A stretch of DNA of 64,000 nucleotides from Antedon mediterranea (Eukaryota; Animalia; Echinodermata): the NCBI RefSeq assembly GCF_964355755.1, contig NC_092677.1:704101-768100 (forward strand). Reading direction: 5' to 3'. The notes below the pieces were generated by a model. The model saw only the letters and a program-made list of their open reading frames with translations. It had not been told where the DNA came from and ran no database searches. A program made the translations under genes and the position numbers. This document shows, in pieces, positions 17,068-61,340 of this stretch (its first letter is position 1; every line of letters starts with the position of its first letter).

Positions 17068-17211
17068 TCAGATTCTAGTGGGTTGTTGTTGGATGCTAGC
17101 ATATGTCGTTTCTGGATCAGGGTGGTTGATCTCGTTGCTTGCACCTTTTGGCAAACCTCGTGTCAGATCCAAATCTGCATATTGTAGTTCTTCAACATTT
17201 CTTAACCGCTT
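17068..17211 (-). CDS. Gene B last coding exon with ITIM (LQYADL) and ITSM (TTYASI)
   Basis: Acceptor tttttatag; KRLRNVEELQYADLDLTRGLPKGASNEINHPDPETTYASIQQQPTRI*. Confidence 0.9.
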   Translation of the reverse strand, partial: KRLRNVEELQYADLDLTRGLPKGASNEINHPDPETTYASIQQQPTRI

Positions 17212-20200
17212 CTATAAAAATAAAGGCGTTTACAATTAATAAGAATGTACTGGTTACTAAAAAAAACATAAATTAACACATTAAAGAAAACATAAATTGG
17301 ATAAAAATACACACAGAAAACAATAATAGAAAATAGACAATGGAAAATGGTAATTTTTGTTCGTTCAGCTGGGCACCTTACCTTTGGAATCTTTTACCTC
17401 ATTTATGTTTGCTAATCTTAATGTTTTCCAATCTTCAAATTTAAACTCATTTAGAACTAATTTGAAATCATTTTCGCATTAATCAGGATAATTTGTTCAC
17501 TGCGCTTTTGATGTTTGAATTTTTTCTACTTATTATTAATACTATGATAAAATAAAAAGTGTCTCTAAAAGATAAGACATTTAAAAAGAAAATAGCTAAT
17601 AGAATAGCTTTAGAAAAGATAACAAAGAATCCCATATTGTTAATACAAGCATACAGTAATACTGTTTGTGCCAGTCACTAATAACACCATGTATAGGAAA
17701 TAACCACAATGAAGAGTATGGGATACTAAAATGTTTTACTCAATTTACCATTATTTTAATATTCATATTACAGTGTAATGGCCATGTGTATATTATACAC
17801 CAAATGAAACAATATTATTTTTGGTAAGCAATATCACCACTATGTATAGGTAATAATCACAAGGAGGAGAAAAAAATCATCATACATAATTCCTTCTGAA
17901 ATTGCCTACAGTATGGTGGCCCATAAGCTCATGGTAATATTATTTTGCTCACAGCAATATCAATTTTACTCACAAAAATATCAATTTGTTAATGAACCCA
18001 TGGGTCACCGTAATTGACAGGCATTCATCTGTTTTTTTTCTCCAACATTTATTCATTTTCAACCATTTTTCTGGGTATTAAGTCTTAGACTTAAATGTTA
18101 AAATCTAAGTCTGTTTGTAGTATTCCAGTTCAATTAATGAAAATAATTGAAAAATAATCCAATAATCTATTTTATAATTTTATAAACATAGGGAAAGTGT
18201 CTTTATTTACAAAATACACAATGGCTACCAACAAAGCTAGGTTACTTCAGCGGAAGACAAACAACAGCTAATGAGAAATTACGGCAAAAATTGGGAAAGA
18301 AAAATAATTGCAATGCCATCCAGCAAGAGTAGTTGTTTGTGTAGACAAGAACTTATCTTGGAAGTTAAGTTGTAAACCCCAATCTTATTCAATTAGTTTA
18401 CTTAAATTCTCCGTCCCTGGACTAAAAAATTTGCGTATTTGGTCAAATTTTCTCCTTTAACTTAAATGTTTTCTTTTGTTTTACTTAATATTTAAGTACA
18501 GCTTAAACAGAACCATCAAGTCTTTATTTTTTGTATTGGGTAAATCAAATGCTATTCATTTATGAGTTGGATTACTTAAATAAAAAATGTATCTTATATT
18601 CTAATCTATACATGGCTGCTTGCTTCAAGTTTCAGTTACTGCTACTAAAAATAAAAAAAATAACAATATCTGAAAATAAAAATAAATTTTACTATTTTTC
18701 TATGTAAATCATTTTTTTCAAAATGACTGCGCTGCAATTGCATAAAAAAATATTTTTAAATTGCATTTTGTTACCTAATACCAATGCTATTCGGTAATTA
18801 TCAAATCATAAAATAAGATATTTTTCAATTGTAAGAAAACAAAAAAATTGCTGTAAAGAAAAAAACAAATACAAATTAACTATGGTATCTAAAATTTGAT
18901 GCTAAACAATTTTTGAATTAAAATTTGATTGAGTTAGTTATATTACAGTATTTAACAATCTTATTTGTTGATCATGTTGAAATCTCAAGAACCAATCACA
19001 TGCATCAAAAACAATCTCAGGCAAATCATTGGCTGTAAGTATAAATTCAAATTTGAATCAACGAATTAGAGAAGAGAATTGTTATGACATCACTATGCAA
19101 CATGCATCAAATGTGACATCATCATCAAGTCATTATATCATGCTTTAACCAACATACTATGTTAGTTAGGTTCCATTTTACTCTATTCCATGGTACACAA
19201 TATAAAATCATTTCTCTAGTGGATGTCTTCTTGACGAATACTTTAATTTCTTCTTTATAAAACCAATCTTAGAAGAATTTGAATAAACAAAAACGGAAAA
19301 ACATATTACATCAACAGATTAGCATAATATGGGATTGGAAAAAAGTTGTTTATTTTTAATTAATTAGTGCCACACAATGGTGCAACAACAGTTTTAATAC
19401 CACTACCATATACTGTACTACAGTTTATCTGAGAAAGAAAGTTAATGATGTAAAACAACAATAATCATTTTTATATAAATGTACCACTTTTCTCTTCTAA
19501 TATTTCTCATATCTTTAATACGTATCCTAACAGGATGGTTTATTGTTAATGTCTAATGTGATGGACTTAAGTCTACTCTTAACTCTCTTGCTGAATAACA
19601 ACATGGTGGACATGCTTAAACTAAATTAAAGTAAATATAGATTACCAATATCATCACAATTTGTTATACCTGTTCAAAATAAAATACATGATCAGCATTA
19701 ACATAGAAAAACACAATCTATAGTTAAGCTACATGTGATTATAGGGCAGAATATATCTAGAATAATGATTTTTTATTTTATAATCATGCTTTATAGCATT
19801 TTAATTGTGAACAACATATTGACATTATACTTATAATCATTCAATTTTATGATTTTGTGTGTATAACATGATGAATGTATTCTTAATACACTAAGGTTTC
19901 TGAAGTCTAACAGTCTTAAAATACCCCTTTTACTGTACTTACATCAACTTGTGCTGGGCGGTCAGATTTCTTTGTTTTGTCCATGTCAAGTTCACTAGGG
20001 TCCTTTTCAGGTTCAACTTGTTTCTTTTTCTTGTCTTTTAAGTTGACCTCTGTGTAAAGGTCACCACCTTTTGCTTTGTATCTTTGTGTATTTCCTTCTT
20101 CCATTTCAATGGCAGGTTCAACATTTGATTTGTTCTTTTTTCTGGAGAACATAAAATAAAGACATACGTTACACAGCATATGTAAATACGTGAACGTGAT

Positions 20201-23200
20201 TGATCGAAATGGCATCACATTATTACAGATAATTTGAGGATCGAAAATTTTCATATTTCTCTTTCAGGTAATATAACATTTTATATTGACTGGTCAATTT
20301 AACACACACATCCAGTGACATTGACGGTTTTGAACTTTGGTCAAAACTACAGTGACATTATCTACGAAAATGGACATACTGTACTGTAGTATTAGACAGA
20401 ATTATTGTTACTAGATGGTACGCTCGCTTCGCTCGCGTACCATCTAGGTTGTGCCCACAGATGGTTCTCGAATACACAGTAATTTCAGCGTAACAAAAAT
20501 GGCGATTTCAAATGTACGTACCACAGGACTATAATACATTGTCGTTTACAGAAACGAATAAATAGAAACGATGATTTATGTAGTCAACTAAAATTAGCAC
20601 CCTGGGAATTACTTCCGAAGGAGAAACTTATCACAAAATGAGTCCAAATTTTTGATTTGGACTCATTTAAAGAAACCCAATTTGTGTTTTGTATGTAACA
20701 TTAGGGTTGAGGGATGGGAAAGCGGATAGGTACAAAGAGGAACAATTTTTAAATATATTCTTTATCCACTCAGTAACGAAATATTTTTTTCATGTTTTAT
20801 AGGCCTATAAATAATATACCTCTAAATACAGTAAAACGTTTGCGATTTAATACTTTGTTAAAACTGTCACTGTCATAATCGATTGAAATATTTAAGTACA
20901 TGTCACAATACACCATACGACGTTTATATTTTTGGTAATTATTAATTAATACAAACGTTGAGAAGGAACTGTCAGTATAAAGTTTATTTGTATATAATAA
21001 TGTGTTTTATATATCTAACAGTAGAGCCTATCCACAATCTCAGTAATAAAGTTTATTTGTATATATTTTTATATTACATCTAACAGTACGAACATTCACA
21101 GTAAGAAATGTTCGATTCAAATGAGGACCAAAAATAGTTAATAGGTATTTACAGTATTGTCAAAGTATTGTAAGTTTATTCTCAAAGGGCCCATATATTT
21201 ACCTACCGTATGTGTTAAACCAAGGGCTCATAAATTCACCTACTTGTGTTAAACCAAACTCTGGCAGACTGAGAGATTGGGATGTTCCATTCATCGCAAA
21301 TCAATACATTTGTATTATACAGATATTGACTGCTTAGAGGTTAAATATAAGATTTGACATCCCAGAGGGAATGATATTAAGTTCGAGGGAATATATATTT
21401 CCCGAAGCGCCACCGATATAAAAGGCAATATCTGTTATATATAGCCAAGAACAGTCTGCTGGGTTGGGTGAAGCTAGGCCTCCTATTTGTATTGTATTTA
21501 AACAAGCCTGCCTAGACACCTTACCTTGCGAAGAATAATATACAGATAATTACTAATTAATGATTCCTTGGCAATAAAATATTCACTTAGGCCTAGGTCG
21601 TTTAAATTCAAAGAAGAATTTCCATCAATAAGCCTATTATAATAATATTATAATCAGGTAGGCCGAATAAACAACTCGTCTTCTTCTCGATCTTCGAGGA
21701 GGAGCCGAATCACCGGATGTTCAGCGCGTACTAGTTACTAGGTTACTACCGTGAGTATTGACCAATCACAAACGGTGTTTCATCACATTTAGGGTGGACT
21801 TATAACAAATGAGGGCGCTATGTATGCATAGCTTAAATAGTTTAGAAGATTAATTTCTTCAAGCAAATTCCGTGGCGCAGCGGTTGAAGCTTTGTCTTGT
21901 GATGGAGTGACAATTGCATCGCAAATTCAAGACCAGTAGATGACTTTTGTTTATTTATCGGCAAACGCGAGTGTTGCACAAGAAAATTAAACAGTCAATA
22001 TCATCGTACTCGAGAATTTATATGATTAATGACAGGGGACACGATAATTACGCGAAAATTACACAGTCAATATCATCGTTCTCGAGGATATATACGATTT
22101 ACGATCCTCGCAGCAGTAGTCATGTGATGCAGTTTCAACCAATCACGTTCGCGTATTTACATAGGCTATGTAATATAATCGTATATTAAATCTATCAAAA
22201 TAGTATTTTTTAAAGAAAATCGGCCTGTCTTCAACATTATGATGATGTTCAACCGGTTTTCAGCTATTAAAAACAATTATCGTAGGAGGAAATAGGAAAA
22301 TGCGAAGTCTCCTCGCATTTTTGTGGCGGGTATTTTTCAAGATGGACATCCATTAGACAGTGTATACCACGATCGGAAAACACCCCTATTTGGGGCAAAT
22401 CGTTGAACCTAAATTCGTTTTAATCGTCAATAACTAATTATCTAACTTAATTTAATTAGTAAACAGGGTTACATCAGGTGGTTAAAATCAGTACCGAAAG
22501 TACGAACCAACTTTATATACCATCGAGTAAAAATTCTAGAAGTAAGGCGCGATTTACCGAATTTTGCCCTTACGTATTAAATTTATATATAGATACTGTA
22601 AACAACAACTTTAGTGGCATCTTCTAATCCCCTAATACAGTATTTTATTTTATACTTTTCTATATATTTATTTCCACACACATCAGCAATAAACATGACT
22701 TTATCAATTACAGTAAGTCTTGTATGAGGCTGTGGCAGTATGATAAGCCAGAGGCAGGATTTGAGCCACAGACCCATAAGCAAACATACTGTGGTTGTAG
22801 TAATATTCCACATTTTCACTGCTGATTATTCCATATTCTATAATCCTTACATTATTTCAAACTATTTACCATCTCGTATGCCTTTGTTGTATATTTCTTT
22901 TGTTAAACCTAAGGATATATTTTTTGCATTTAGCCAAATCTTATTGGATGGCTACTCGACTGATGCATTGTGGAAAAAGGACAGACTAAAATGTAGTTAA
23001 AGCTGATGGTTTATAAACTAAATATATACTCACGAACTTGACTTTGCATTCTTGCTGGCTGTTTAAAATAATTACAAAATGTAATCAAAACTTTTTCAAA
23101 TGAATAAGATTACAAGATCCTTGTCATGTGTACATTCTTAGATAATGACATGACAAGATCTTGGTTCTCATGACTACATTCTTTAGAAGAGATATCAGAA

Positions 23201-26200
23201 AACATTGATTCTGCCTTTTAAAATACATTTTGTTTTTATGGTTAAAATAAATAAAAAGTATTACTGATAAAATAAATAGTTTCCCTCTGATAGACATTGG
23301 GGAGTTCTTATATTGATTATTCAATGAAACAGTTTTATGACAATAAGAAAATGGTTGTAATGGTGTTTGGTATCAAATGATATGTCAGATTATGACATAA
23401 ATTAAGTTTCTAATGATGTGGCTATCAAGATAAATTATAATAACTAGATGGCACGCTCGCTTCGCTCGCGTACCATCTAGGTCGTGCCCACAGATGGTTC
23501 TCGAATACACAGTATTTCCAGCGAGAAAAAAATGGAGATTTCAAATGTACGTACCGCAGGACTATAATACATTGTCGTTTACAGAAACGAATAAATATAC
23601 ACAATGATTTATGTAGTCAACCAAAATTAGCACCCTGGGAATTACTTCCGAGAGAGAAACAAAATGAGTCAAATTTTTTTATTTGGACTCATTTAAACAA
23701 ACCCAATTTGTGTTTTGTATGTAACATTAAGGGTTGAGGGATGGGGGAAGAAGATAGGTACAAAGAGGAAACATTTTAAAATATATTCTTATCCACTCAG
23801 TAACGAAATATTGTTTTTAATGTTTTATAGGCCTATAAATAATATACCACTAAATACAGTAAAACATTTACGATTTAATACGGTACTTTGTTAAAACTCT
23901 CACTGTCATAGTCGATTGAAATAGTAAAGTACATGTAACGATACACCACTACGACGTTTATATATTTTTAAATTATTAATTAATACAAACGTTGAGAAGC
24001 AACTGTCAGTAATAACGTTTATTTATTTGTATATTATATGTTTATAATCTAACAGTAGGGCCTACCCACACTCACAGTAATAAAGTTTATTTGTATATAT
24101 TTTTATATTACATCTAACAGTACCAACACTCACAGTAAGAAATTTGCGATTCAAATTGCGATCAAAAGTGGTTAATACCTTAACAGTATTGTACAGCATT
24201 GCAATACTATTTATGTTTATTCTCCAAGGGGGCCCATAAATCTAAATCTATACCTCTATGGTTAAACCAAATAATTTGGAATGTTTATTTGTATATTATA
24301 TGTTTATAATCTAACAGTAGGGCCTACCCACACTCACAGTAATAAAGTTTATTTGTATATATTTTTATATTACATCTAACAGTACCAACACTCACAGTAA
24401 GAAATTTGCGATTCAAATTGCGATCAAAAGTGGTTTTAACCATTAAAATACCTTAACAGTATTGTACAGCCAGGGAACTCCCTGGTACAGCATTGCAATA
24501 CTATTTATGTTTATTCTCCAAGGGGGCCCATAAATCTAAATCTATACCTGTATGGTTAAACCAAATAATTTGGAATGTTCCATTCATCACAAATCAATAC
24601 ATTTGTAAAAACGTATATTAAATGTATCAAAATAGTATTTTTTAAAGAAAATCAGCCTGTCTTCAACATTATGATGCTGTACTCGAACTGTTCAACCGGT
24701 TTTCAGCTATTAAAAACAATTATCGTAGGAGGAGATAGGAAAATGCGAAGCCTCCTCGCATTTTTGTGGCGGGTATTTTTCAAGATGGACATCCATTAGA
24801 CAGTGTATACCACGATCGGAAAACACCCCTATTTGGGGCAAATCGTTGAACCTAAATTCGTTTTAATCGTCAATAACTAATTATCTAACTTAATTTAATT
24901 AGTAAACAGGGTTACATCAGGTGGTTAAAATCAGTACCGAAAGTACGAACCAACTTTATATACCATCGAGTAAAAATTCTAGAAGTAAGGCGCGATTTAC
25001 CGAATTTTGCCCTTACGTAAATTTATATATAGATGAAACAACGATACTTACCATTAGTAACTGTAAATTTTACATGGAAACTGAGAACTTTTAAACTGGT
25101 TTTCATTTCACAGCAATAGTGACCATCATCATCCTCTTTCACCTTTGGTATCTTCAGAGAACCATCGTCAGCAACCGTGAATCTAGAATTAGCATCTCCA
25201 GAACGAACTATGAACTTTTTGTTTCCTCCTTTCTTGTCACATTTATGCCAATCAAAGTGTTCCACTATCTCTCCTGTTGCAAGTGTGTAATCGATTTGCA
25301 AACAACTGTCAGTAGAAATTTCTGCCTTTGCTAGCTTAACCTTAAAGCTTTATTGAACAAAAAGATAAGATAAAATTATCAAAATGTTTAGTATATAGCA
25401 TCAGACATAACAAAATACTATTTTTTGAGCGGAATTTTTACACCTTACCCCACAATGAATCAGTTTAGTTCCATTATTGTAATTAACCTACTAATGTCTT
25501 GTTTTGAATTTGCTTATTTGAGGCTGGTGAATAAATACTAGTAAATGTAAATCTTTACTAATATTTTCTTCTCATTATTCAATGTACTGCATACAATTCC
25601 AAACGTTTGTGGAAATAAGGAATAAACTGAAACAGAATGATCATAAATAAATATACTTACGAACTTGACTTTCCAGTTTTGTTACCTGTATAAAAGCAAT
25701 AGTAAAATAGTAGAAATATGACTCAGAATGAACACAAATAAACTATGACATTGGACAATAGATTATAGATGATGATTAGAGAAATGGTGGTGGATTTAGG
25801 TGGTAATAAATGATGCCAATATCAATGAAAGTTCAAATTGGAACAAGAATAGTGTGAGAATCTTGATAGTTGCCACACTGTGGCTGCCATGTGTTCAAAC
25901 ACACCACACATACCTTTCCAGAAATGGAGGAAGATTAATTTTACATTTACAATGATTAAAATAATGACAATAATAACTTTAATTAGATGTTTTTGCCCTA
26001 ATCTGACATAATTTGTACTTTATACTAAGTACATTTGAGAATACTTCTTCGCAAGTAGTTCTCGGGTGGGACTCGAACCCACAACCTCCAGATCACTAGC
26101 CTGGCGTTCATACCTCTAGACCACCGAGCTTGCGCTGATGGCTAGTGGTTAGAATCGAGCCCAAGTAAGCAGCGGGTACTACACCAACAGGATTGTAATT

Positions 26201-29200
26201 GTAGTTTTTGCGTCAGGGAGTTGAGTAATTAGATGTTTTTGCCCTACTCTGACGTAATTTGTACTTTATACCAAGTACATTTGAGAATACTTGCGAAAAA
26301 ATTTGCAAGTAGTTCTCGGGTGGGACTCGAACCCACGACCTCCAGATCACTAGCCTGGCGTATAACGACAATAATAACAACAATTATAATTAATGAGAAA
26401 GTCAGACTTATATTTACCAGATCCTGTAGGAGATGCGAGACTTATATTTTCACTTCCATGCTGATTGGAACCATCATCTTGATCTTCACCTTCAACGATC
26501 TTCCTAAATCATCCACAAAGGAGCATATTGTTGAACACACAAATGTGATGTTCACAAATCATATATATAATAAACATCACCCACAAATATTACCACTTAC
26601 AAAATCAAAATATAGTAGTACTATCATCACTCACAAATGTAATGCAGTCAAATAAGTGCACGACTGAATATTTAGATTACTAGATGTTGCATAATAATGC
26701 TTATTTTATTTAACTTACTAACTTCATTACATAAAAAAAACATATTTTACACTTATTTAATACGTTACATACAAAAAGAAATTTGTAATAACTATTTGAG
26801 TGAAATGAAACACCCATGATTTGTGTTAAAAGTTAAAATCCAATGCATTTTTAAAAGTTAACATAAACTGTTAAAATAGTGTTAGTAAATATTAATCATA
26901 GAATGAACTTCAGAATAATACCCCTTTCACACCAAAACTCTGGAGTAATCTCTGGAGACATCCCAGGGTTTATGACCATTCAAAACATCGAGAAACTCTG
27001 GAGATACCCCTTTCACACCAACCTAGCAACATCGGGGTTTATAAAATAAAATTGTAAATGTCGCCCTCTATTTTGTTTGTTTACATAGCGACGATCATTA
27101 GAATTATTTTAATTGATATTTTTAATTTAATAATTATTTTCAAAAGTATCAGAAGTCATGCAATGTTTCATTGATACTACTTTTTGATTTTTTTGATCGC
27201 AATACATTTTGTACAAATATTTAAAGTATTTTGAAATAAAACTAAAGCAATGAGTGATCCTGTGAGGATGACCTTTTGACCTAAAAACTCCGGAGTTTGA
27301 TGTTGGTACCTTTCACACCAAAACACCGGGGCGTCAACTCCGGAGTGTCTCCGGAGTTTTGATTAGGTGTGAAAGTGGTATTAGATACACAGTGTTATTT
27401 TATAGACGTTACAGACCATACAACCCCAACATGAACAGGCTTAAATAGGTTGCATGCAAATTAAATAAAATGGCAAGTTAAAATTAAAACTGCAGAAATA
27501 TTGCCATTTGCATAATTGTATAGCCATCTAGAGTGTGTCAAGATTTATGTTATTGTTTGTAAAGCATATAAAGAAATATAATTGTTTTGAGCACTCACCC
27601 AATATGCTTATTGTTCCAGCATTCTGATGATAAAACAGAAATTGTTACAAATGTTCTAAGACCTTGAGAATGTATTCAGATTGTTTAATTTAAGAGAATT
27701 ATTATTTATAATAAATAAAGCATTGGCCAAAAAAAGATAATCATGTTTCTTCCGAAATACTAATTCTACAGTTTTCTGAGGTTAGATAGACCTAAGAAAT
27801 AACCCAAAGAGAGCACACCGTTACGGTGATAGTGTAAAAGGGGTATTATAGTAACATGTTTTGTAAATATAGTATACGATGCTTTAAAGTAATATTAAAT
27901 TGTATTATTGATGAATTACTTATATTACATATTTACTTGTTTACCTCCGCCAAGGAGGTATATGTAATCGATCGCGTGTGTTTGTTTGTTAGCAAGATTA
28001 CTCAAAAACTAATTACAAGATCTTTACCAAAATGATAATACAGATATGTGGTCAAGGACCATTCCATTAAATTTAGGAGGTAATTCGGACCACGGTCCCA
28101 ATTCTGGACCACTTTTTAGTATAATTTTCAGACCTGCTAGTGTTAAAAGATAGGACAGAATTTTCAAAAGCCGGCAAGCAGTCTTAAAGTAACAAGTAAA
28201 CTGTATGTAATTGCATTTTCTCGAGAACTACTTGTCCAAAAAACTTCATTTTTGTACAAGAGGCAAGAGTTACAATTTGTGATTTTAACTTTAAAACATA
28301 AATTGATTTAATTTACAGGTTTTTTATACAAGTAGTTTTAAAAAACCTATTTCTTTTCAAATTAATCTGTTTGTTTTTGGCGTTGCTGTTCTATTGTTAG
28401 TCAACAGATTAGAATCTATTGTTAGTTGAAAGGCTGGTTACATAACCATTCAACCAATTCGCATACACATGCTTGTAGTGAAATTAGCCTAAATCACAAA
28501 CGGCATTAGGACACACACAAATATATATATATATTTTCCCGGAGAAATCTTATGTAGGAGAAGTTTACAGTAGGTGGAGGTATGCACTCTCGGAGTGGCT
28601 TTCTAGTTGTTACAGTATTCACAAATTTAAATATATATATTTACAAATGGACGATCAAATTGATAGAGTGGCGGCAAATGTTGACTGTATGTTACGACAG
28701 CTCTATTCTACAATCATTATGTTGATGAAATTATTTTTATTTTTAATTTTGAAAATGATGCTAATTTATCAACTCCATGCATAAGGAAATTAATAATAGA
28801 TGTTTTTTGATGTTTTGATTACCAAATGTGAATATTCTGTTAATACGTCTGTTGTCAGAAAACTGACATTCACTGGGCAACTTTTAAATTGTTTTTCTTC
28901 CTACAAAAAACTCTGATATGTACAATAATCCACAGGATTTTAAAAATCAATGGCAATTTGGTTAGTTTCCATATTGATTTCCTCAACTTAATTACTATTT
29001 GACGTAGGTGCAATCTAGTATACACTGTGTCTAACTAATCAGTTTATTACTGATGATGGTACGGTAGGCTTAAAAACTGTTGTGATCTTTTCCATACTGA
29101 CACGGCTATAAGCCCACCCCCCTAGAACATGAAATCACGTCAAGTTTGGGGGTTGGGCTTATACCTGAGGATCCAAAAATGCAGGTCGTCAAAAACAACA

Positions 29201-32200
29201 CATGTACTGTGTAGACATCATCATCTCTCCTCTGAAACCACCACACGAGTGCCCTCACGATGTGTTGCGACGTGTATGTTGCCTATACACGAGGTGTAGA
29301 GTATCGGAAAATTAAACTTATATACTTAGTGTGTGTCATTTATCGTAGAATATATTATTTTAAACGTCAATTGAACAAGAATTTATCAAGCAGAAAAGCA
29401 AGTATACAGTTTTCGTTAGATAGAAATGTATCAAAGAAATTTAATAAGCCTGTTTATGGCAGCCAATACCAAATAGGGGTTTCCTGTTTTGGCGACTTGT
29501 GATTCGAGCGTAGTGTGTGCAGCGATTTTCGCCCACGACTAAGTGTAAACAAAACAGGACCAATAGGCCTGATATGGACTAGCTTATATTAGCCTAGCTT
29601 TGTTATAATATGCGGTGTATGGAAGTCGCCAGACAGGTCGACCATCACAAAATTAATACGCGCCCTTACCAAATACAAAATAATGTATTACGGCACCTAC
29701 TGTAGATCTTCGAATTAATGGGTGGGCTTATACCCGAGTGCCTGATTTTGCATGAAAATTAGTCAAAAGTCGGGGGTGGGCTTTTACCTGAGTTTGGGCT
29801 TATAGCCGCGTCAGTACGGTAATACAAAAATTATTTTATCTTTTTTTAAACTCCCAATGCTATAAAAACAAGATTCTTTACTTACTTATTGTTACACAGG
29901 CTACAACACTACAGACAATGATAAAACCAAGAATAGCTCCAATGATGATTAAGGCTATTTCCCAATCTTCAAATCGGCCTATATTAAGAATAAAAAAACA
30001 TTCATTTTTTTCAAGTTACAAAAGGTCTATTGGATGGAATTTCTCATTTCTGTAAGGTAAGGTAATAATATAGGTGCTTAATGGTTCACATGCAAATACA
30101 TCTTAGTTACGGGAACAGCCATGTCAGTATGGTTTGATCACAAAAACAATATATAATATGTGTAGTTTTTTGTGATGTTGATTGAGTGGGAGTGATTACA
30201 TGCATGCTGACTCATACTGCCGTTGGAATGCATTGCAATTCCGATTACGTAATAATCAGGGAAAACGGGGCCCAATCGCTGTTATGAAAACCTGCAATTG
30301 TACAATAATTCGGAGCCACTAAAGATAGAAGTGCCGAAAAACCAGTAATTATTGGCATGTCACACTTGTTTACTCTACTACCGTAAATCTTCTAATTGTA
30401 ACCCTGGGTTATTATTCTTTGATTGTTTTTAGGGTGGGTTGTTGAACCTAAAAATGTGAAAACGCCCACAAATGTGAAAACAAATCGCCCACAAATGTGA
30501 AAACGTATCGCCCACAAATGTGAAAACAACCACAAATGTAAAAACGCATCACCCACAAATGTGAAAACAGCGCCCACAAATGTGAAAAAAAGAGAGATCT
30601 TTTCGCCCACAAAAAAAAAAAATCCAAATCAAATTTAGTGCTAGGCCCAAACAATATTGATCGAGTTAATGTTAATGTATTTATATACATTGTATTGAGT
30701 TGTCTCAATAATACGATACGTCTGTTAGTGTCGTGGTTAACGCGTTGGATTATTACCATTTGCTGCTTGTGCGCGCGATAATTGCATGTTAACTCGAGAC
30801 GATATTTGTTATTCGCTGCGTGCATGCACGATACTTCAAAGTTATATCACTGTTGCTTGTAGTGTGTAGTTGTTAACTCATATCGTCTAGAGGAAGGGTT
30901 TTGGTTTAGTGTAGAGTATGCTGTGTTGCCGGTGTCGGAGACTACAATGTTGGTAAAAGCATCACATTGTTGGCGAATTCGTAGAACGGTTGTGGAACTC
31001 GTTCTTTAGTTAGCTGATAGTTAACATCGGCCTTCTCTGTTGTTGAGAGTACACTCTATTCCTGTATGTAGTAATAGCTGTTGCGACAGTCAGTACATAT
31101 GTAATTGTAAACTGTATTTATTTAAGACATTTTGAAAATTAGAGCTGCTCGATGGCTGGAAATGGCACTTAATTTGAAATAAAAATGTATAAGAGTCTCT
31201 AGGACCTCGTCCCACCATGGTCACTGACTGGTGGGGCTGAGGTAAGAACATTTGGAAAAATAGTGCTACTATAAGTACGATGCAAATAGAATTACTTAAT
31301 TTAAAATATGGAAAAAAAATTCTCTAGGAGAATTTTTTTTAAAAATTAGAGCTGCTAAGTTACTGTTCTTTTAATAGTTGTGGTAGGGGTGCAGTCGCTT
31401 ATAATTATGAACTAAAAAAACAAAACTCCTTGTTTTCGTTCAATTGTCTCTACATCTGGGATCCAATAACCTGCATAATCTCTGAATAGGTCAATCGCGG
31501 CTAGCCTTGTCGGTTTCGTTGTGCTGCCTATCGCACACACGGTAGTTTGTGAGCAGCCTTATAATAATAATAATAAATAACATTTATAAAGCGCAAGAGA
31601 CAAAGGTTTCAAAGCGCTGTGTTTTCCAAGATCAGTGCAAGTAGTAGCGTGCGATTATGCTTCTCTGAAGAGATGAGTTTTGAGTTTAGTTTTTAAATGT
31701 GATAACAGATTTTGATGAGCGTATTTCGAGTGGTAGAGTGTTCCAGAGTTTTGGGGCTGCGACAGCGAAAGCACGATCACCGTAAAACCGAGTTCTGGAA
31801 CGGGGTCCAGGTTTTAGAAGAAGTCTGCTGGATGAACGAAGCGAAGAGTTGGTTGACGGAGTAATGATGTCACATATGTAGGCTGGAGCACATCCGTTGA
31901 TGGCCTTATATGTCAGCAACAGGATTTTAAAACGAATGCGCTGATCAACAGGCAACCAGTGTAAGTCACGTAAAACGGGAGAAATATGTTCATGTCGTTT
32001 AGTGCCAGTGATAAGTCTTGCGGCGGAATTTTGGATTCGTTGAAGAGGAGACAGATAAGAAGTTGGTAGGCCGTACAGAAGCGAGTTATTACAGTCCAGA
32101 CGAGATGAAACAAAAGCATGAACAAGACGTTCAGTTGATGTTTTGTCAAGGTACTTACGAATCTGGCCGATCTGGTAAATTCCAAAGGAAGCACCACGGC

Positions 32201-35200: not shown

Positions 35201-38200
35201 CGTACGGAAAAAACTGACAGACCTGTTTTGTACCTGGTGGTGTAGGTGTACATTTGAAGAAAGCTGGAATCTTAATTAATGATCTGTTGACTGTTTATAT
35301 GGCTTATATAAGACCTATTTTAGAATATGCTGCCCCTGTTTGGCATGGCGCTATCACTAAAGATGTCAGTGTGAAAACAAATCGATATGCCAAATCCTTT
35401 ATTCCCTCCGGTATCATCCAGTACAACAGAAAGTCAAGAAGATAATTTTATCTTGTATTTTTTGATGTTTTTATATGAATGGTTTTATGCTATATTTGTT
35501 TTTATTGTGTTTTCTTGTTATTATGACGAGCAATGAGTTTCCTTTTTGAGGATCTACAAAAGTTATCTTATCTTATCTTATGTCCAAGTCTATTGAAAAG
35601 GTACAAAAGAGAGCATTGCGAATCATGCTAGGTAACAACTATTTGTGCTATGATCATGCATTGTCTGTTACTGGTTTACCTACTCTTGTTGAGAGAAGAA
35701 ACAAACTGGTGTTGTCTTTCGGGGAAGGCTTATTAAAATCCGAGCTGTTTAGAGAAATACTTCCCCCTCTTCATAAGGCAGACTTAGGTCGTCTCCAGTT
35801 CCCACCATGGTGGATATAATTAATAGGCACCACTAGCTCTTTTTTTGATATATAATAAGTGAATGTTTTAAGGTTTTTTATTCATGTATGTTTTAATTTT
35901 ATGGTTCGATATCTAATTTTAATGAGATGTTTCTATTTTTATAGCAATTTTAACTAATTTGTATTTATTTGTAATACAATTCATTTCAGTCCTTGACTGT
36001 CGTTTTTTAATATATTTTTATATACCGAATAAATAAAATAAATAAACTAGACATGAAACTCGTCACTTTGACGAGTTAGTTATCCGCTCGACAAACGCCA
36101 CGTGCACGTCATACGTTACAATATTGTGCACAGAAAAATATTAAGGCATTATGACCTGAACTGAAGAATATGATATGTTGTTATTTCTGAATTCTGTTAT
36201 TTTGTGTCATATAGTATACACAGTACAATCTGTATACATATCACAAACAGTGTAAAATAGGTGAAATTACGGGACCCGTATTTTATTGTAATTTTTAACA
36301 TCTTGACGGTTTCAAAATGAAATGCAAAAGTAGAAATTTCAGAATGAAATTATCTCAGCAACAACATATTAACGTGTAGAAGAAATTTGAATACGTGAAA
36401 TATTGATGCGCGCTCTTTTAAATGTAATGAAATATAATGCAAAAGATGAAAATACGACTTTTTTTATTTAACTGGCCATATGATGACGTCACGACATTCA
36501 ATTGGCACAATTTACACATGATTTTGTATCTACAATACAATAGCTTCCTGAAAACGTTTTAATCGTGATTATCACATTTTATTCTTACGAGGTATAACAG
36601 ATTAAAATTTACTGTAAAGATGAAATTAATGACCAACGTAATTTAAATTTTTAGGCATGATGACGTTAAAAAAATTAAAAAAATTTTAATTCATGCAAAA
36701 GATAGTTGATTGACCTAGAATATATTAAAATCGGGGTGAAAATAGACAACGAATAAGTGGAGATGCGCTCTATTAAATGTGATGAGCTATGACGAAAGAG
36801 ACAAAAATCCTATATTTTATATTCGCGTGGCCATACGATGACGTCACAATGTCCGGTTACCCATATTAATGCATGATCCGATATCTACAACTCATCAACT
36901 TCCAGAATATGTAATTAAAAAAAAGTTCTCCATGTAGTTTAGAATCTATGACTGTTTAAAAATAGGCATAATTTTGACAAATTTTTGAACTTTTTCACCA
37001 AAAACGCGTGCAAATTATGTAATTCGACGTGCTCGTATGACGTAATTTTAAGTCGAAATTGCTTAAAAGTTGGTAACATTACTAGAAAAGGCTGAAAAAA
37101 CATAAATCACGCGAAAAAAATATGTTTTTAACGCTACGTGTGCACCGCGTGCGTAAAAATTTTTGCGCGCGTGGGAATTTTTGACATGCTCAAAATGACA
37201 TGAAACGCATAGAAAGTTGATTAGAAGTTGATTTTTCGCATCCTAAAATTTTAAACGCACGTACGCGCGTAACTTTTTGTGAAACATGCTATTTTTAATC
37301 CATAGAAAGTTTGCGCTTGATATGACTTAAATTTTCACAAAGTGTCAAAACAAAATTATGTTTGGTTTTTAGTCTATGATCAATCATTGAAATTCATAAA
37401 ATCGCGCGTACGTCACGTTGCGCAACTCTGACGTCATTCAAAAATAGGAGGTGCACAAGTTCACGTAAATGTCGATGTGTTGACAAAGTTACGATATGTT
37501 CTGTTTACACGTTTTAGAGAAACGCGACGCACAAAAATGACAGAAAGAAAGAAGTATAATACAGAAAAAAAAAAAAAATTTGATGAAACAGGACGATTAC
37601 AAGGAGTTATCCGTTACTAAGCGGATAACTAATAAAAACACAGGAAACTAAACATTTATACTATAAATCTAACCTGACCTGTGGGCATGGATAACCATGT
37701 CTTCAGCAAATATAGTAGTATAGTGTTCTCTACTGTATGTGGCATCAATGTTAAATTGACATGATGGCTAATGAGCAGGATGAGGGTTATAAGGGGTAAT
37801 TCCTTTTACAGGCTGGGTGCATGGACAGGGTTCAACTTGTATTCCTGGCATGCTAAAATGTAAAGTTGTATTTTTAAAGGAGATGCTCATGAATGACTCT
37901 AGGGGTCTGCCTGTTTTTAATGAGTTTTTAATCAATTCAATGAAAAATAGTGATAGTGCTCCACAATTGTTTTAAAACATCTAGACCTGACCTTGATTAA
38001 ATGGAATTAAAAGCAATGTAATGTAGCTCACACATTAATAAAGCACTGATCACATACAATATGCAGAGGATGAATGACATTTCTTTGGAATGTTTACAAC
38101 AAAAACATCAAATGACAAAAAAAAACCATAATCACATTTTGCCTAGCATACTGTACATATGATTTACAATATGAAGCAACAAGTGAAGTTATAAACAGTA

Positions 38201-50200: not shown

Positions 50201-53200
50201 TCATCTTTAAACAGTTAAAAGGTTAAAGTCTAGGCTTGCCAGTTAGAGAACATTCAAGAGTGCATTCTCTTTTAAAACAAGGAATGACCTGGTTTCATGT
50301 TTTAAAATACATTATTTTTACAAATAAAATGGTCTTTACATTTGTTTCTGACAATCCTGAGTATAATATATGCCATGTACATACTGTAGTGTTTGCCAAT
50401 TGGGCATTTTCATGCGAAATGTATATGACCTGAACATTTCATTTTCACAGTATCGTAAAGTCTATACATTTCCTAAATTACATAAAAGTTATACTTTTAT
50501 GAACAAAAATAATAAAATAACAAAAACAACGACGTGATTTTAACAAAGCACTAATTCGCGTATGTAGCGCGAGTTAAAGACGAATAAAGCATTTAAAATG
50601 TATTCATGACATCTACATATATGGGTGACATTTTGTAGCAATAACATTTCAACCATAACTAGTATGAGAATTTAGGTTTCCCTGTTTTTAGGTCATGTCC
50701 ATTTTTTGTAACAACTTAGTGTTACCGATATTCTTTGTTCTATCAAATCAGTGGTATTCATGTCCCAGTGGAGTGTGTTGAGGCAATTTAGCTATTTCGT
50801 TGCTCAAGAGATTCATATGATCAAAGTATTATTTACCCTCAAGGTTATTGTTGAAAACAACAAAACACTCTTCAACTACCCAATAAAATGTAACGCTTGT
50901 TGTGGAATAACCCATTTTTTTTTTAAATTAACCAACTTAGTTATTGACTATGCAGCTCTTTGATTTGTTTAATTTTCAATAATTTAACTTACTTTCGAGT
51001 ATTTTAGGGCAAAATGTTGTATTTGACTAAATAGAAATGTATATGTTCCAAACAATTTGACACCAAAAGTAACGCTATACGATAAATATTTCTTGAGATA
51101 CGGTAAAGATATATGAATAGGTCAATAAGAGGTCAATAACCTCACTTCCGGTCATTTTGGGATAAAATATTTCATTACACCAAATAAAAATATGCATGTT
51201 CTGAACAAGTTGGGCCTAATCCCAATTTTCTATGATAAGCCATTACCGAGATATGATAAGACCAGGTCAAAGGTCAAACTGCTAGAAACTGCAGTAGCGA
51301 CCATTTTTTGACAAAATTTTCTGTTAGAGTAAATAGGAATGTATATATCGTGAACTATTTGAGACCAAAATCAATACTCTACAACAAGCGGTTACAAAGT
51401 TATAGACTAATTAAAATGGCAGCCATTTTGGACGCCATCTTGAATTTCTCGGAGAGCACAAGGAGGATTTTTCAGGACTTTTAGTATGATGTTCCAATCA
51501 CAGTTCTGGACCTTTCCTGAAAAAATTAGCTTGTTACCAGAAATTTCCGGGTCAAACCCTAATGCTCTTGGACTACCTGTCCTGTTTTGCATTCTGACCC
51601 CTTTTGACCTCAAATGACCTATTTACAAAGTCAGATTTTTTGGGAGGTCTTTCTGTATCTCTTTACACAAAATAGATTTAAACATTTATAAAAACCATTG
51701 ACGCAATTATTTCAAAGTTTAACATTATTTTCCATCAACTAATTAATATTTCAATGCAAAATACTGTTTTTCTGGCAATTAATTGATATAAACCTGGCAA
51801 CACATTCTCCTATTTCATCTAAACTATTCGTATGACTCTAGTAGCATTATGACAAGCCACATATACATTTTATTATTGGATTAGCCATATTTAAATTGTG
51901 TTTGATGTGTTTTGTTTGTTGATATTTTGTTTGTATTTTTTTGTATTTTTCGTATTTTCCTGGCAACACAAAACCTATGTACGAAATTTACCCCAGTGTT
52001 TTTTTCGTGATCATTGTTGAAAAACCTATTGATTATCAAATTAAAAAACCTCATTGATTTAAAAACACCACTTTGGAAGTTATAGGTACGTTTATGAGGT
52101 ATACTTTTATAAAAAAAATAATTTTTAAAAACACCCCTTTTTAAAATAATGGTATCAACCAAACTCCATTTTGTAATTTTTTGTTTTCTACATTAAATGG
52201 AACTCAATACATGTTGTTTACACTGCTATAAACAAAAACTGTATACTGTAAGTATTTTTGGTTAAAATAAGTATACAAGTTTGTACTTTTTCACTATAGA
52301 AAATCTGTGAAAAATGGCAAAAACATCAAAATTTGGATAATTGACCCTTGTCATGGCAACGGAGGCTAAAAATTAAAATGAATGTTGTAGATATGCTTTT
52401 TATTGAAATGTCTATTCATGGTAAAACTTTGAGAGAAATCCATTTTTTAACATCTGCCACCAAATCTTTGATTTTTACAGACAATGACTCTTAAGTTATG
52501 ACGATTTTTTTGCTAAGCAAGTTTGATAAATCCAGCCCAAAGATTTAAGGCAAAGTTAAGACGATTTTTTTGCTAAGCAAGTTTGATAAATCCGGCCCCT
52601 GATGTTGTAATGCATGCTATAGCCTAAACTACTGTGGGAACAAAATGATGTATGTCGTGTAACCAAATTTGTTAAATGTGTCTCTGAATGAATTAGGCAA
52701 AAATGTAAAATATATTTTTCACACTTAAAACAGATAATTTTTATTGAAAAACTTCATCTGGTTCTGAATTAATACAAATCTTGGAATTGTTACTTCTTTG
52801 AAACCAAAGAAAAAATACAAATATTTTATTCCAAGATTTGTATAATTTTTGTTATTAAATATCTTTAAGGAAAAAATTGGAAAATAATATAAAATAAAAT
52901 TAGTGACTGACCTGAGACAGTGATCTGCATTGTGTCTGCAGTGGATCCAATGAGATTTGTAACATTCACTGTTATTTCATGAACTGTGCCTTCCTCTGAT
53001 GCAATGAATGTGAATTTTGCAGAGGTTTCATATTGATCAAGACCATCAATGCTCCAATTATAAGATACCTCTTTAGGGTTAGCTTCAACATTTTCCACTT
53101 CAATCGTAACCCATTTTCCAGGTTTGGGTTTATCTGGTTTTGTTGTCTCATATCTTGATGTATCTGGAAAATATACATGAACAACATTTAAACTATACAT

Positions 53201-56200
53201 GTATTATTATTATCAATACAAATCTGATATTCAACATTATTATTTTTATTTCACCATAACAATAACATACACATTTTTTAATACTTACGCAGTTCTTCTA
53301 CATTGCTTTGTTTAGAGAAAGCAGTGTTATTAGCTTCACATGTGTAGTTCCCAGCATCATTCTCTGTTGGTCCGCTCATTGTGTATATTAAAGGTAATGT
53401 AGATTGTTGGAAAATGATACCATCATCTTTGCTAAGGATTATGTTAGGAGATGGATTACCGTCTACTGAACCAGAGCATGTGAGTACTATAGTAGTATCA
53501 TTATAAGTGGAACTAATGGTGACAGTACCAGTTAAATCTGTCAACAAATAAAATTTTTCATTGATAAACACATTATATTGATTGCTTAACGAACATAGCT
53601 TAACTACTAAGGCTCGATGTCCAAATTATTCAAAATCAGCGCTACTACACATGTCTTTAAGTATGTAACATGTGGTTTAGTGCAACTTTAATGAATTAAA
53701 CATAAACACACAGTAGTTTAATATAGACATAGTTTATAAGAAATAATATAATTATTAAGGGTTTTTTTTTTAAACGCTATCCATAAGGTGTAATATTATA
53801 AATATTATTTTAATGTATGTGCAATATTTGTATACAGTACTTACCTACTATGAAAAAAAATGTGTTTGTGTGCTGCCTTAAATTAACTAGATTTACAGGT
53901 ATAATATTAAATCAAAATATGCATACATTAATGAATGAATGAATAAAGAGGGGAGAGACCAATAAAAGATAAAAAAAAAATAAAAAATCTTTGTTGGTAC
54001 AGTACATTTTTTGTTTTAAAGCTAATGGGAATTTTTGATATACACAAAATGTCATGAATCGTGTTGACTAGAAATTAATTTTTAGTTTTGTGAAACACGT
54101 CATTTTTACTCCACAGAAAGTTGGACCTTGATATAATTTATATACTTTTACTATAAAGTGTCAATACAAAAACATACTTTTAGTTTTTAATCAATCATGG
54201 AAATTCACACAAACATGACAGAAAGAAAGAAGAATAATAAGGGAAAATAAAAGATATCATACAATTACACACTAAGTGCGATAACTAATTACAATTTCAG
54301 GAAACATATTCTTCTATCAAATTCTGACCAATAAAAATCTTTATGGTGAGGACACCTGTTTTACAGTTTAATCAGTTATTGTTTAAATTTAAAAAAAAGC
54401 TCAGTCATTAAAGAATGTAACGGAGGTATCACCAATTTGCTTCTCATACTGTATGTACTTCTCATTTTGTTTATTCTTCAATATATTTATAATACATGGC
54501 ATAATTTTTTCAAACCTTGTCATTTACAAACTTTTTAATCCTCTGAGATAAAAGAGTAAGTACTGTAAATGTGTGAACTGTAATTTAGTAGAATGATATG
54601 AGCAACAAGTGCATTCAAAAACAATAGCAAAAGTAGCATATAATATAACTATAAATATTCATTAGCCACATTTTCATTTAAAATATAACATTGAATTTGA
54701 AATGAAAACATCAGAAAGAGAATTAGTAAACGATTGCTTTCCAGGATTCAAAACAGTTATTTACTTAATCTATTGATTTTAAAAATGTTTATATTTAATA
54801 GTAGTACTGTACTCACAGTAATTAAGTGTTACATTAGCATTACTCGTCACACTTCCAGCAGTATTATTTGCTTCACATCTGTAGATTCCGTTATCTGAAT
54901 CTGACACAGTAGCTATGGTGTATGTTAGAGGTAATGTTGTCTGTGTTATAATAATAGTGTTATCTCTATAGAGGTTTATATTAGGAACTGGGTCTCCTTC
55001 TACAGTACCAGAGCATGTGATTGTAACATTATGAGCAGTGGTATTAGAATTAACATTGATCGTAATCACATTACTACTTTCAAAATCTGTAAGAGATAAA
55101 ACGAAATATTTATTATTTCTTATTTTACAAATTTACAATGTTTACCAAAATATATATCATTTCATGAAACAATTTCAAATTGACCATGTGCAACTAATAA
55201 TGACAATTAAAACTCTACAACATTACAAAGAACATTCACTTTTTTAAAAGAATAAAATCTGGAATGAATGTATCTCTTCGACTTGTTTGATAATAATCGT
55301 AATGTTAAATATTGAATAATTAATAAAATAAATAAAAATTGTATTAAAATGTATTCAGTTGATTTGGTACCCAGATTTAGCATTTTAATAGTACTATAGG
55401 CCAAACTTACTGTAAAAACAATGGTTAACTTTAAATCTCTGTAATTATCTTTTACAAAAAAAAGTTTCTTTCTGACAATCGAGAAAAAGGCTACTCCTTT
55501 TAAAACGAGAAATGTGACAATCTTGCAACCTTTGCCATCTGCTTATTTTCCCATACTATCTTGTTTGTGAGTTTATGGTCGAAGGTCGGGAAGGAGGTAT
55601 AATTGAAGGTTTTGTATGCCAAATCGAGTTATATAATCATACTTCGACCATTTTTGGAGAAATTTTTCCATGAATGTTAATATAGGCATCTTCCAAATAA
55701 TTTGACACCAAGATTATTTCATTTAATCAAAGCATTAAGCGAAGGTATGACAATTTTCTTTTCAATGGGTGAAAATATTCAAATTGAGGTCAGATGTCAA
55801 AGATGAATTTAGAAATATGACAGCATATGTTTTTACAATATATGCTTGCTTCAAACATTCATAACACAATGTTTACACTTTCCCATGATTTGCACACCTT
55901 TTTTTTTGACATAGGGAACTGGACTAAATTAAAAAATGTACAGCACAATTTGAAACAATGTAAAGGTATATTTTGGTATTTTGATAAAGTAAAACCAATG
56001 CAAGTAATAAATTAAAATAACTTTATAAAATAAAGAATAAGATTTATATTTTAATCAGATATGGTCATTTTCACAATCAGTGGTGTAACTGGCAATTTTA
56101 ACCTTTTAAGGTGTAAAATAAATTCTTAGTTTTTTGGTTATAATACTACCCCAGGTCCCTTGGATAGCAATAACAAAGTTTCAGCGATTCATTTTGCGGA

Positions 56201-57209: not shown

Positions 57210-58960
57210 TTGTAATCACAGAGAAATTCTATTTTAATTACCTGAAAGAGAACAAAACATTGTGTAATTCAAAAGAATACTATTCAGTATTCATTTATTC
57301 ATGGTCAAACACAGTAAAATATGTACATGGTTTGAAATTATTTAAATTCACATAAAAATATAAAAATGAGTTAAAAAGGTTAAAATTTAGTAAAATACAG
57401 ATAAAATGAATCGTTTAAAATACAAAATTGGTGTGTGTAAGGGTATAAATGATCAAAGTTTTGCTATAGACATATATGTCATATTTAAATGCTTAGTACT
57501 CTACTCTAAATTGGCAGTACTCTCGCTTAAATCTGTGATCGATTTTGTCGCAAATTTCAATATGTCAATGCAGAAATAATTCTCTTCCAAATATATAAAA
57601 TTATTTTTCATCATTGTCAAATAATTAAATGAACAGGAAAGTTATATACTAACTGTCAACTAAACTATTTAGAATGATAAACGCTTGTTTAACGGTTTAA
57701 CAACAATCAAATATTTATATTTCGACAATTAAAAAAAACAATTTCAAGGGCGCATTGTATCCTGAAATTTGCTAAATAAATTAAAAGTTTTTAAATGAAT
57801 CTTGAATGAATTACAAGAGGACGCCACAAATTTGAATCCACTGTATTTCTTAGTGCAAAAACAGAGAACAGATGATTTGTCAGAGAAGCAGTTTTAATGA
57901 AGTTTTTCACTTCCATAGAAAAAAAAGCAAAAATGATTTCAAATATAAAAGACAAACTAAACAGTTAAATTTAACCAAAAACTCATTGTCTGACACTGAC
58001 AGACAATTTGACTATTTTTTGCTTTAAATTACAGTGTTTTAAGGTAAATAATAAAGTTAATAACGTTAATCCAGTGATGCATCAGTGATTTTCACCTTAA
58101 CCAATGAAAATACACGACCACGATTAGCATGCAGACAGCAACTACATACCTGTACCTGTACCCTAGTATACGATAGCGAAATAGCTATGGCAAATGTATT
58201 TTCAGGTTTGTAATTTTAACAGTAAAGTTGGCGTCAGTGATATGATATTTTCAATCAATTAATCAGATAATTTTCCGTTTTAAATTATTTTGAATTAAAA
58301 TGCAATTCTACAAGTAGTAAGAACAAATCAGTATATTTAAAGGTAACATTATATAAAATATAAATAAATTACAAAAAACAGTTTTATGATGTAAACTTTC
58401 ATTCATTGTCATGAATGTATACAAAGTTCTATCTGTTTTGACCTGATCAGAGTGTTTCAGGTACAGGCATGAATTTTGAATATAATATCTGGTTAATTGT
58501 ACATAAATCAAATATATAATTTGTAATAGAAATCAAGACGAAAAAACATGAATTTCTCTTAAAATGATCAAATACAAAAATTTGGCAAAATTCTGCTATA
58601 AAAACCAGGAATAGTTAGGTAGTTTAACCTAATGTAATAACAGTTCTGGTGACTCCCTAGAAGGTGAAAAAAGATGGCGGACATACGGTTGATTTTTTTC
58701 CCCCACCTGCCATTAACGCAAGGCATTGGAATGTTGTGTCTGAACACCTTGGCTTTTAACGCCACGGATTACCGTATGCCTTACGTAGATAACGCTACCT
58801 TAACGCCATGAGTCTGAACATACCCTAAATGGACATTAAAACATCTGGACAATCTATTCACTGGACCTTCTGGGGCAAGTTCATGAACTCAATTGAATTG
58901 TAATACAAAGGTTGATTTCTCAATTATAAATGTATATCATTACATTACACTACACATAGG

Positions 58961-61240: not shown

Positions 61241-61340
61241 TGTATCAAAGATAATCAGGTAAATAAAACCATGCCAAATTGACTATTGAGAATTCTCAAC
61301 TATTACCACAGTACGACTGTACGACGAAGTCTACTGGTAT
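61241..61340 (-). other. Candidate non-coding first exon / promoter region of gene B
   Basis: Strong donor GTAAGT at 61240-61235 in non-repeat sequence; CCAAT and GGAA motifs near 61355-61415; boundaries uncertain. Confidence 0.3.

Follow-up and report, generated by a model that had tools for sequence, protein, structure and literature searches.

Introduction

Immunoglobulin (Ig) domains of single-pass receptors are normally extracellular, and tails that carry an ITIM (immunoreceptor tyrosine-based inhibitory motif) are normally unstructured. This holds for receptors of the CEACAM1 type, among which SIRPa, PD-1, and the CD33-related Siglecs are also counted; their tails are unstructured and are not known to have an Ig domain. 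The subject of this work is a gene of the crinoid Antedon mediterranea, located on the minus strand of a 64-kb stretch of contig NC_092677.1 (positions 704,101 to 768,100; called here the window, in whose numbering all coordinates are given). As read from its sequence, the gene encodes one transmembrane (TM) segment and, after it, a V-like Ig domain followed by an ITIM and an immunoreceptor tyrosine-based switch motif (ITSM), a layout that is also conserved in a paralogue.

Some features of this layout have been described separately in other invertebrates. AjNLR-new of the sea cucumber Apostichopus japonicus is reported to be a membrane receptor whose intracellular Ig domain binds actin and fidgetin in phagocytosis, with a topology based on TMHMM and on indirect binding assays (PMC13133943). 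In Hydractinia, the Alr proteins are tandemly encoded members of the Ig superfamily (IgSF) with tails carrying ITIM or activation motifs (ITAM) and extracellular V domains without disulfide, and both ITIM receptors and SHP homologues are described for this invertebrate (bioRxiv 10.1101/2022.03.04.482883). The consulted portions of PMC11999971 and PMC12227049 contained nothing relevant to the layout. Searches of the literature, outside whose scope most subscription journals fell, listed no paper that deals with this gene or describes an ITIM tail containing an Ig domain.

We consider, with moderate confidence in the reading as a whole, that the gene encodes a likely inhibitory crinoid receptor with a predicted cytosolic V-like Ig domain, probably captured, which would likely be a docking site for a cytosolic partner.

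Results and Discussion

Exon Chain from the Transmembrane Segment to the Stop Codon

The coordinates given by the initial annotation were all confirmed on the minus strand. The sole TM exon (29886..29978, phase 1-1) is followed by a basic juxtamembrane micro-exon of 25 nt (27599..27623, phase 1-2), an exon of 86 nt (26418..26503, phase 2-1), and a second micro-exon of 25 nt, named A (25661..25685, phase 1-2). Then comes the exon of the V-like Ig domain, 296 nt long and coding for 98 residues (25052..25347, phase 2-1), and after it the 25-nt micro-exon B (23034..23058, phase 1-2), a tail exon of 199 nt (19943..20141, phase 2-0) that contains the YxxV motif DLYTEV as well as a cluster of basic residues, and the last coding exon of 144 nt (17068..17211, phase 0-stop), where the tyrosines of the ITIM (LQYADL) and the ITSM (TTYASI) stand 26 residues apart. 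The predicted cytoplasmic tail has 266 residues. All 11 introns of the gene model have GT-AG borders and the only stop codon is at the end of the chain, so that the six exons placed in phase between the TM exon and the ITIM/ITSM exon by the initial annotation hold in frame.

The RefSeq model XP_071959158.1 (411 aa) contains letter for letter the same chain from the TM segment to the stop codon, including the three 25-nt exons, and the tail Ig domain is 100% identical to a segment of it. RefSeq isoforms and exons of such size usually rest on transcript alignments. Because this model is identical from TM to stop and the paralogue conserves the layout, the exon chain, judged from the sequence, is not due to chance.

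Beyond the TGA stop the same frame remains open for 42 codons (17067-16942, minus strand), with a polybasic run and a C-terminal T-D-V. We take the latter to be a class I PDZ-ligand pattern, and the CAACCA after the TGA presumably fits the CARYYA read-through context; read-through or alternative splicing past this codon could thus add a membrane anchor and a PDZ ligand.

Topology of the Receptor

The protein is predicted to be a single-pass type I receptor with its N-terminus outside and its C-terminus inside, on the basis of one TM segment with a basic C-side, a signal peptide in the paralogue, and a candidate one in this gene. The 19-residue hydropathy reaches 3.11 in the TM exon and at most 0.59 after it, in agreement with the earlier statement that no second hydrophobic helix lies between the TM segment and the Ig domain. 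In both paralogues the TM segment is acidic on its N-side and basic on its C-side, and no hydrophobic stretch follows. A hidden TM exon, which would place the Ig domain outside the cell, was sought among the open candidates: none of 38 in the 23-kb intron and none of 3 downstream of the Ig exon was hydrophobic. Between the TM and Ig exons there was a single candidate (26423-26337), which is hydrophobic but in phase 0 and cannot join the chain. A caveat on the absence of sequons from the Ig domain is that four are found in the cytoplasmic part outside its core.

It could be argued that the placement is wrong, either because the models are chimeras of tandem genes or because a protein without signal peptide inserts with its N-terminus in and its C-terminus, Ig domain included, out. 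Such a fusion is seen in a related family (P0169, from the crinoid Anneissia japonica), the RefSeq model of the gene lacks a signal peptide, and the nearest kin of the tail Ig domain are extracellular. Unlike in P0169, however, no C2 or TM exon comes after the Ig exon; the paralogue, which does have a signal peptide, shows the same layout; the charge bias indicates a cytosolic C-terminus in both genes; the sequons were lost from the Ig domain; the one hydrophobic candidate before it is incompatible in phase; and an ITIM and an ITSM would serve no purpose outside the cell. Taking this into account, a wrong placement seems quite improbable. The cytosolic placement of the domain and the use of its exon are together considered quite probable. 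The paralogue with its signal peptide, the positive-inside charge pattern, and the lack of any second TM exon in a compatible phase agree with the description of an invertebrate type I receptor that has one TM segment, a genuine Ig domain beyond it, and both an ITIM and an ITSM.

Sequence and Predicted Fold of the Tail Ig Domain

The C-strand Trp and the RF...SLxI and DxGxYxC motifs on which the domain had been recognized as V-like correspond to Trp33, Arg55, Leu64, and D73-x-G-x-Y-x-C79 (Y77) of its 98 residues. Compared with the V-set features listed in bioRxiv 10.1101/2022.03.04.482883, the hallmarks present are the C-strand Trp, the D-strand Arg with the EF Asp, the E-strand Leu, the Tyr corner, and the F-strand Cys. 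Meanwhile, the Gly column of the A'-B turn is occupied by Ser, and the AlphaFold2 model has no C'' strand of at least 3 residues. The isolated domain scores just below the curated Pfam cut-offs for both I-set (22.9 bits, cut-off 23.7) and V-set (23 bits, cut-off 26); it is a short V-like or V/I-intermediate domain. No C1-set match was found in the tail at E 0.1 with Pfam, only the one V-like domain and a decayed fragment.

The missing B-strand Cys was confirmed by alignment, with Ile18 in that column here and Val in the paralogue, which leaves no B-F disulfide. Its interpretation as a mark of intracellular life did not stand, because extracellular relatives also lack this Cys: among the nearest extracellular V domains, those of Anneissia, 3 of 4 have Tyr there. 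The CEACAM N-domains, which match best in structure, are extracellular as well. The domain contains 14 Lys and 0 sequons, as had been counted, together with 4 Cys; the excess of Lys is weaker in the paralogue, whose tail Ig domain has 7.

The Ig fold is a prediction. From the single sequence AlphaFold2 gave a pLDDT (predicted local distance difference test) of 38; with 19 aligned Ig domains it gave a pLDDT of 87.5 and a pTM (predicted template modeling score) of 0.78, values biased toward the Ig fold since the alignment was picked from Ig domains. The resulting model is an Ig beta-sandwich with strands A', B, C, C', D, E, F, and G. CEACAM N-domains occupied the top 11 ranks in Foldseek (TM-scores 0.76-0.82) and the top 2 of a wide structure search, where the best match had a Z score of 13.6 and a root-mean-square deviation of 1.7 over 93 residues. 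By rank 50 the Z score had dropped only from 13.6 to 11.1, and many Ig domains fit the model. For the tail Ig domain the prediction is a V-like Ig fold that most resembles that of the CEACAM N-domains.

The Paralogue and the Conservation of the Tail

Paralogues were sought through protein searches only. The one found, XP_071959155-157, is encoded outside the window and comprises a signal peptide, V, C2/I, and PKD-like domains, a TM segment, the same Ig domain, and a tail with tyrosines; its Ig domain begins about 10 residues past the TM segment in 3 of 3 isoforms. Identity between the two proteins is 75% in the tail and 60% in the tail Ig domain, against 45% in the V domain, 28-31% in C2, 33% in the PKD-like domain, and 30% in the TM segment. 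The ITIM LQYADL and the ITSM TTYASI are identical in both and fit [ILVS]xYxx[ILV] and TxYxx[VI], the latter being the ITSM consensus. One isoform of the paralogue, XP_071959157.1 (P0003), keeps the cytoplasmic Ig domain and two YxxV motifs and lacks the ITIM/ITSM exon; from its sequence it is a possible non-inhibitory splice form.

Within the tail Ig domain the conservation is highest at residues 49-74 (strands D-E and the EF turn), with 22 of 26 identical. This distribution bears on the idea that tail Ig domains associate with one another through the GFCC' face, in the manner of CEACAM N-domains, and cluster the tails; the ITIM/ITSM pairs would then be exposed jointly, or be masked as long as no ligand is bound. 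The fold matches would suit it, considering that several CEACAM N-domains were solved as dimers, and so would the location of the domain 10-50 residues from the membrane and upstream of the tyrosine motifs. Nevertheless, conservation peaks in D-E-EF and not in C-C', the variation in a second copy of the exon described below falls in B-C-C', and a common fold does not show function; we regard self-association as unlikely.

The domain was also searched for in other proteins. Of 61 candidates from a search with the 98 residues against longer proteins, the gene itself was the only one retained; the known paralogue escaped the search, which indicates an insensitive index. In a search of 1.84 billion proteins 200 passed E 0.001, and the matches listed (150) were mostly partial alignments to long multi-Ig proteins. 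Among 147 proteins with a domain match, 47 have a TM segment other than a signal peptide, and four Antedon records have the match behind a hydrophobic stretch. The only others of the 147 with this arrangement, P0089 and P0110, have odd internal segments in Robo/DSCAM models and were judged artefacts. In a metagenome scan 0 of 132 pattern matches were confirmed.

Origin of the Tail Ig Domain

Outside Antedon, the best whole-domain match among the matches listed was a receptor of Anneissia japonica, and a profile search retained 12 proteins of 2542 candidates, namely, those of the 2 Antedon genes, 3 from Anneissia, and 7 of Dscam type. The Anneissia V domains share 29-41% identity with the tail Ig domain and reach 70 bits, versus at most 26 bits for the genes' own ectodomains. 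It is because of these pairwise scores that an Anneissia-type V domain is preferred as the donor, the trees being less firm. With 20 rows the tree was unresolved; with 14 rows, long branches and C2 domains being left out, the domain formed a clade with the Anneissia V domains at a support of only 87/85, and an origin from the gene's own V domain was not rejected (approximately unbiased test, p 0.14). The sequences suggest that an extracellular receptor family was the probable source from which the tail Ig domain was captured.

At the column of the B-strand Cys, Tyr is found in the three V domains of XP_033100834/5 and P0169, which keep the F-strand Cys; two of these are plainly extracellular, being N-terminal and behind a signal peptide. 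Sequons are absent from both Antedon tail Ig domains, while each of the 3 Anneissia V domains counted has 2-3; in the alignment the Anneissia sites NGS and NLT become DGS and KFT/TFT in Antedon. Considering that 3 of 4 Anneissia domains have Tyr at that column and that the 3 counted have 2-3 sequons each, it is most likely that the loss of the disulfide preceded the move, which it may have enabled, and that the sequons were lost afterwards.

The 86-nt exon of the tail can be aligned with the last third (3') of the Ig exon, through the phase-1 donor; among 215 windows this one scored best, with codon-shuffle P values of 0.0005 and 0.003. By this alignment it is what remains of another copy of the Ig exon, which decayed and now codes for an acidic linker. 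The two micro-exons A and B are paralogous, with 77% likeness over 56 nt including the splice sites. From both likenesses it follows, at the level of the alignments, that the tail once held two units of micro-exon plus Ig exon, one of which decayed. A decayed Ig exon after micro-exon B was not found (score 27, shuffle mean 27), and the introns adjoining A and B showed no significant likeness. The repeats common to the regions downstream of A and B are high-copy elements and are no proof of a tandem duplication.

In the history that we propose, a V exon that was already without the disulfide, and for that reason able to fold in the reducing cytosol, would have entered the tail by shuffling, with a copy of a 25-nt micro-exon on either side. 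After capture, the domain would have lost its glycan sequons, and in this gene it would have been duplicated once more, the extra copy then decaying.

Two Anneissia models of the same family deserve mention. P0169 (677 aa) looks like two tandem V-C2-TM genes merged by annotation. P0172, an adhesion G-protein-coupled receptor model, begins with a V domain of this family, with the B-strand Cys kept, followed by C2; by sequence, the V-C2 module of the family is seen here shuffled onto another receptor class.

Read Evidence and a Diverged Second Copy

Contigs of four of the six runs were aligned to 19900-30020, intron coverage included. In run X1, whose label as RNA is a guess, a contig with a depth of 147 covers 25146-25347 at 90% identity, with 20 substitutions and no gap. 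Its alignment ends exactly at the acceptor, 25347, leaving 12 letters that are on the acceptor side by coordinate convention. The X1/X3 depth ratio was 0.45 at the Ig exon and 0.42 in the bin of the 199-nt exon, versus a median of 0.014 over 30 bins, contig depth being a poor measure. The contig end and the depth ratio together are a weak hint of a spliced transcript.

Exact and diverged copies of the Ig exon coexist in X2 and X3, and their equal depths in X3 (159 and 167) fit two alleles or a near paralogue. The 17 changes analysed in the second copy affect 5 codons synonymously and 8 nonsynonymously, and 9 of the 17 are at third positions (p 0.075). It is noted that 17 of the 20 differences fall within 96 of 202 nt, in the strands B-C-C' (25200-25295; scan-corrected P 0.006), and that at 6 of 8 changed residues the second copy matches the paralogue. 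Both letter types were seen in runs labelled organism A and organism B (X1, X2, X3, and X6), a hint of an old shared polymorphism or of a third paralogue.

The clustering in B-C-C' and the occurrence of both letter types under both labels would be in line with an integrated decoy or sensor, that is, a copy of an extracellular recognition domain that traps pathogen proteins in the cytosol and switches the output. Against this, the block in which the synonymous changes cluster is the same one, and the second copy agrees with the paralogue at most of the changed residues, to which gene conversion, an old haplotype block, or a third paralogue would be an equally good fit; no pathogen ligand is known either, and a decoy is very improbable. 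We hold as highly improbable, too, that the tail Ig domain is a polymorphic sensor in which a pathogen or host protein bound to B-C-C' would switch the ITIM/ITSM output from inside; if true, it would be to an animal receptor what integrated domains are to plant NLR proteins.

Ectodomain

The model that begins at the ATG at 56930 has 683 residues, instead of the 685 reported initially. Of these, 387 precede the TM segment and contain 10 sequons; the true 5' end is uncertain. The first exon (56543..56930, minus strand, like those that follow) holds a signal-peptide-like start, hydrophobic at residues 7-25, and an extracellular V-set Ig domain (E 4e-4) with 45% identity to the V domain of the paralogue, and it is absent from the RefSeq model. 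Two C2/I-type Ig exons in phase 1-1 follow, at 54817..55086 (4 sequons; Ig_2, E 2e-12) and 53289..53537 (3 sequons), and then a membrane-proximal exon for a PKD-like beta-sandwich (52912..53163; PKD E 2e-4, below the cut-off). A separate upstream signal-peptide exon was not found in 56935-64000. All four ectodomain exons end in phase 1, and the phase 2-1 of the tail Ig exon does differ, as had been pointed out, from the 1-1 of the extracellular Ig exons.

Proposed Function

The inferred signalling is based on the ITIM/ITSM biology of receptors of the CEACAM1, SIRPa, and PD-1 type. By this analogy, inhibitory signalling by the receptor is fairly likely. A ligand would bind to the V-C2-C2-PKD ectodomain, the tail tyrosines would be phosphorylated by a Src-family kinase, and a tandem-SH2 phosphatase of the SHP type would be recruited and damp activation, probably in immune cells. 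The tail Ig domain, in turn, would tether the receptor to an adaptor or to a protein of the cortical cytoskeleton, which would position the phosphatase at the engaged receptor. Partner docking is favoured as the job of the domain because the intracellular Ig domain of AjNLR-new is the one functional precedent in echinoderms; by analogy with it, we put this role forward as a tentative proposal.

Several observations weigh against the reading of the gene as an inhibitory receptor with a captured, cytosolic Ig domain. XP_071959158.1 starts without signal peptide at an internal Met in the third ectodomain exon, and RefSeq can fuse tandem genes in this family, as in P0169, where a V domain is put after the TM segment. 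No read joining the TM exon to the Ig exon was seen; none of the 15 joints listed of 763 is a splice junction, which is uninformative either way. The acceptor of the Ig exon is a weak AAG, whose crude score of -0.9 falls in the 75th-90th percentile of 1808 background AGs, and the frame is preserved when the Ig exon is skipped along with micro-exon A or along with micro-exon B (321 nt in either case); owing to both facts, Ig-less isoforms may be common. To these are added the bias of the structural alignment, the modest tree support, and the own V domain as an origin not rejected, already mentioned. Only 2 genes, both of 1 species, were found to have the layout, and the 60% conservation of the tail Ig domain could come from the 3' block having been duplicated or converted recently. 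The signal of purifying selection is weak in the second copy, and no partner of the domain is known.

Part of these observations would be expected of a domain that is included in the protein and acts as a passive spacer or optional cassette, setting only the distance between the membrane and the ITIM. The unit of micro-exon plus Ig is frame-neutral with a weak acceptor, one copy decayed to a 29-residue linker that is still spliced in, and the selection signal is weak. On the other hand, the core Trp, the Arg-Asp pair, and the Tyr corner are intact in both paralogues, the Ig domain is kept in all 3 isoforms of the paralogue, and the second copy accumulated 20 substitutions without a gap, whereas gaps are present in contigs of the neighbouring intron. 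A mere spacer is therefore rather improbable, and docking of a cytosolic partner continues to be the role that we favour.

We consider the architecture real and unusual, with an Ig domain and an ITIM/ITSM pair in one tail in 2 genes of 1 species, the intracellular Ig domain as such having a precedent in AjNLR-new. Its history can be read in a likely donor family that had already lost the disulfide, glycan sites that disappeared, duplicated micro-exons on either side, and one more copy that decayed, which makes it a testable case of a domain that would have crossed the membrane through exon shuffling. Furthermore, a system of one domain, with a possible frame-neutral splice form that lacks it, is a simple setting in which to learn the role of intracellular Ig domains.

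Other Elements in the Window

A convergent IgSF receptor gene on the plus strand (3565-5185 and about 7777-7900) has V, I-set, and third Ig-like exons as well as one for a TM segment; apart from a weak match to its own V domain, nothing related to the cytoplasmic Ig domain was found in it. Long open frames occur at 35107-31689 (minus), 42941-43717 (plus), 63493-62124 (minus), and 35218-35816 (plus), most of them in the 23-kb intron, and we take them to be pieces of endonuclease and reverse transcriptase of the long interspersed element type. Two direct repeats (25980-26107 and 26226-26361; 128-136 nt, 90% alike) show high depth in all four runs; with a motif that we read as like a tRNA B-box, they are possibly a short interspersed element.

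Comparison with Known Systems

With CEACAM1-type receptors the Antedon gene has in common a type I IgSF build, here predicted, an N-terminal V domain accompanied by C2-type ones, and the presence of both ITIM and ITSM in the tail. CEACAM1-like clusters occupy several of the top rows of a feature search. The CEACAM-like fold of the tail is here predicted inside the cell; its identity with CEACAM N-domains is only 15-24%, Robo/MuSK I-set domains outscore CEACAM by sequence, and membership in the CEACAM family is unsupported by sequence. By analogy, the receptor would work like a CEACAM1-type inhibitory receptor, and it is not classed as a CEACAM.

By description, not by sequence, it is likened to the Hydractinia Alr receptors, which differ in that no Ig domain in the tail is described in the available text. 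The closest sequence family is that of the Anneissia japonica V-C2-TM receptors (XP_033100834/5 and P0169) together with the V domain of P0172; in contrast with the tail Ig domain, the Anneissia V domains are N-terminal and extracellular and have sequons. NACHT, the mark of the AjNLRC4/AjNLR-new type, had no match at E 0.1 in the Antedon proteins P0001 and P0002, and a tail of 266 residues is too short for it. AjNLR-new is reported to have NACHT, two TM segments, and an N-terminal Ig domain, while the Antedon receptor is predicted to be single-pass, with an Ig ectodomain and an ITIM/ITSM tail. Together, both point to Ig domains having been recruited repeatedly and independently, in the immune receptors of deuterostomes, as modules for signalling in the cytosol.

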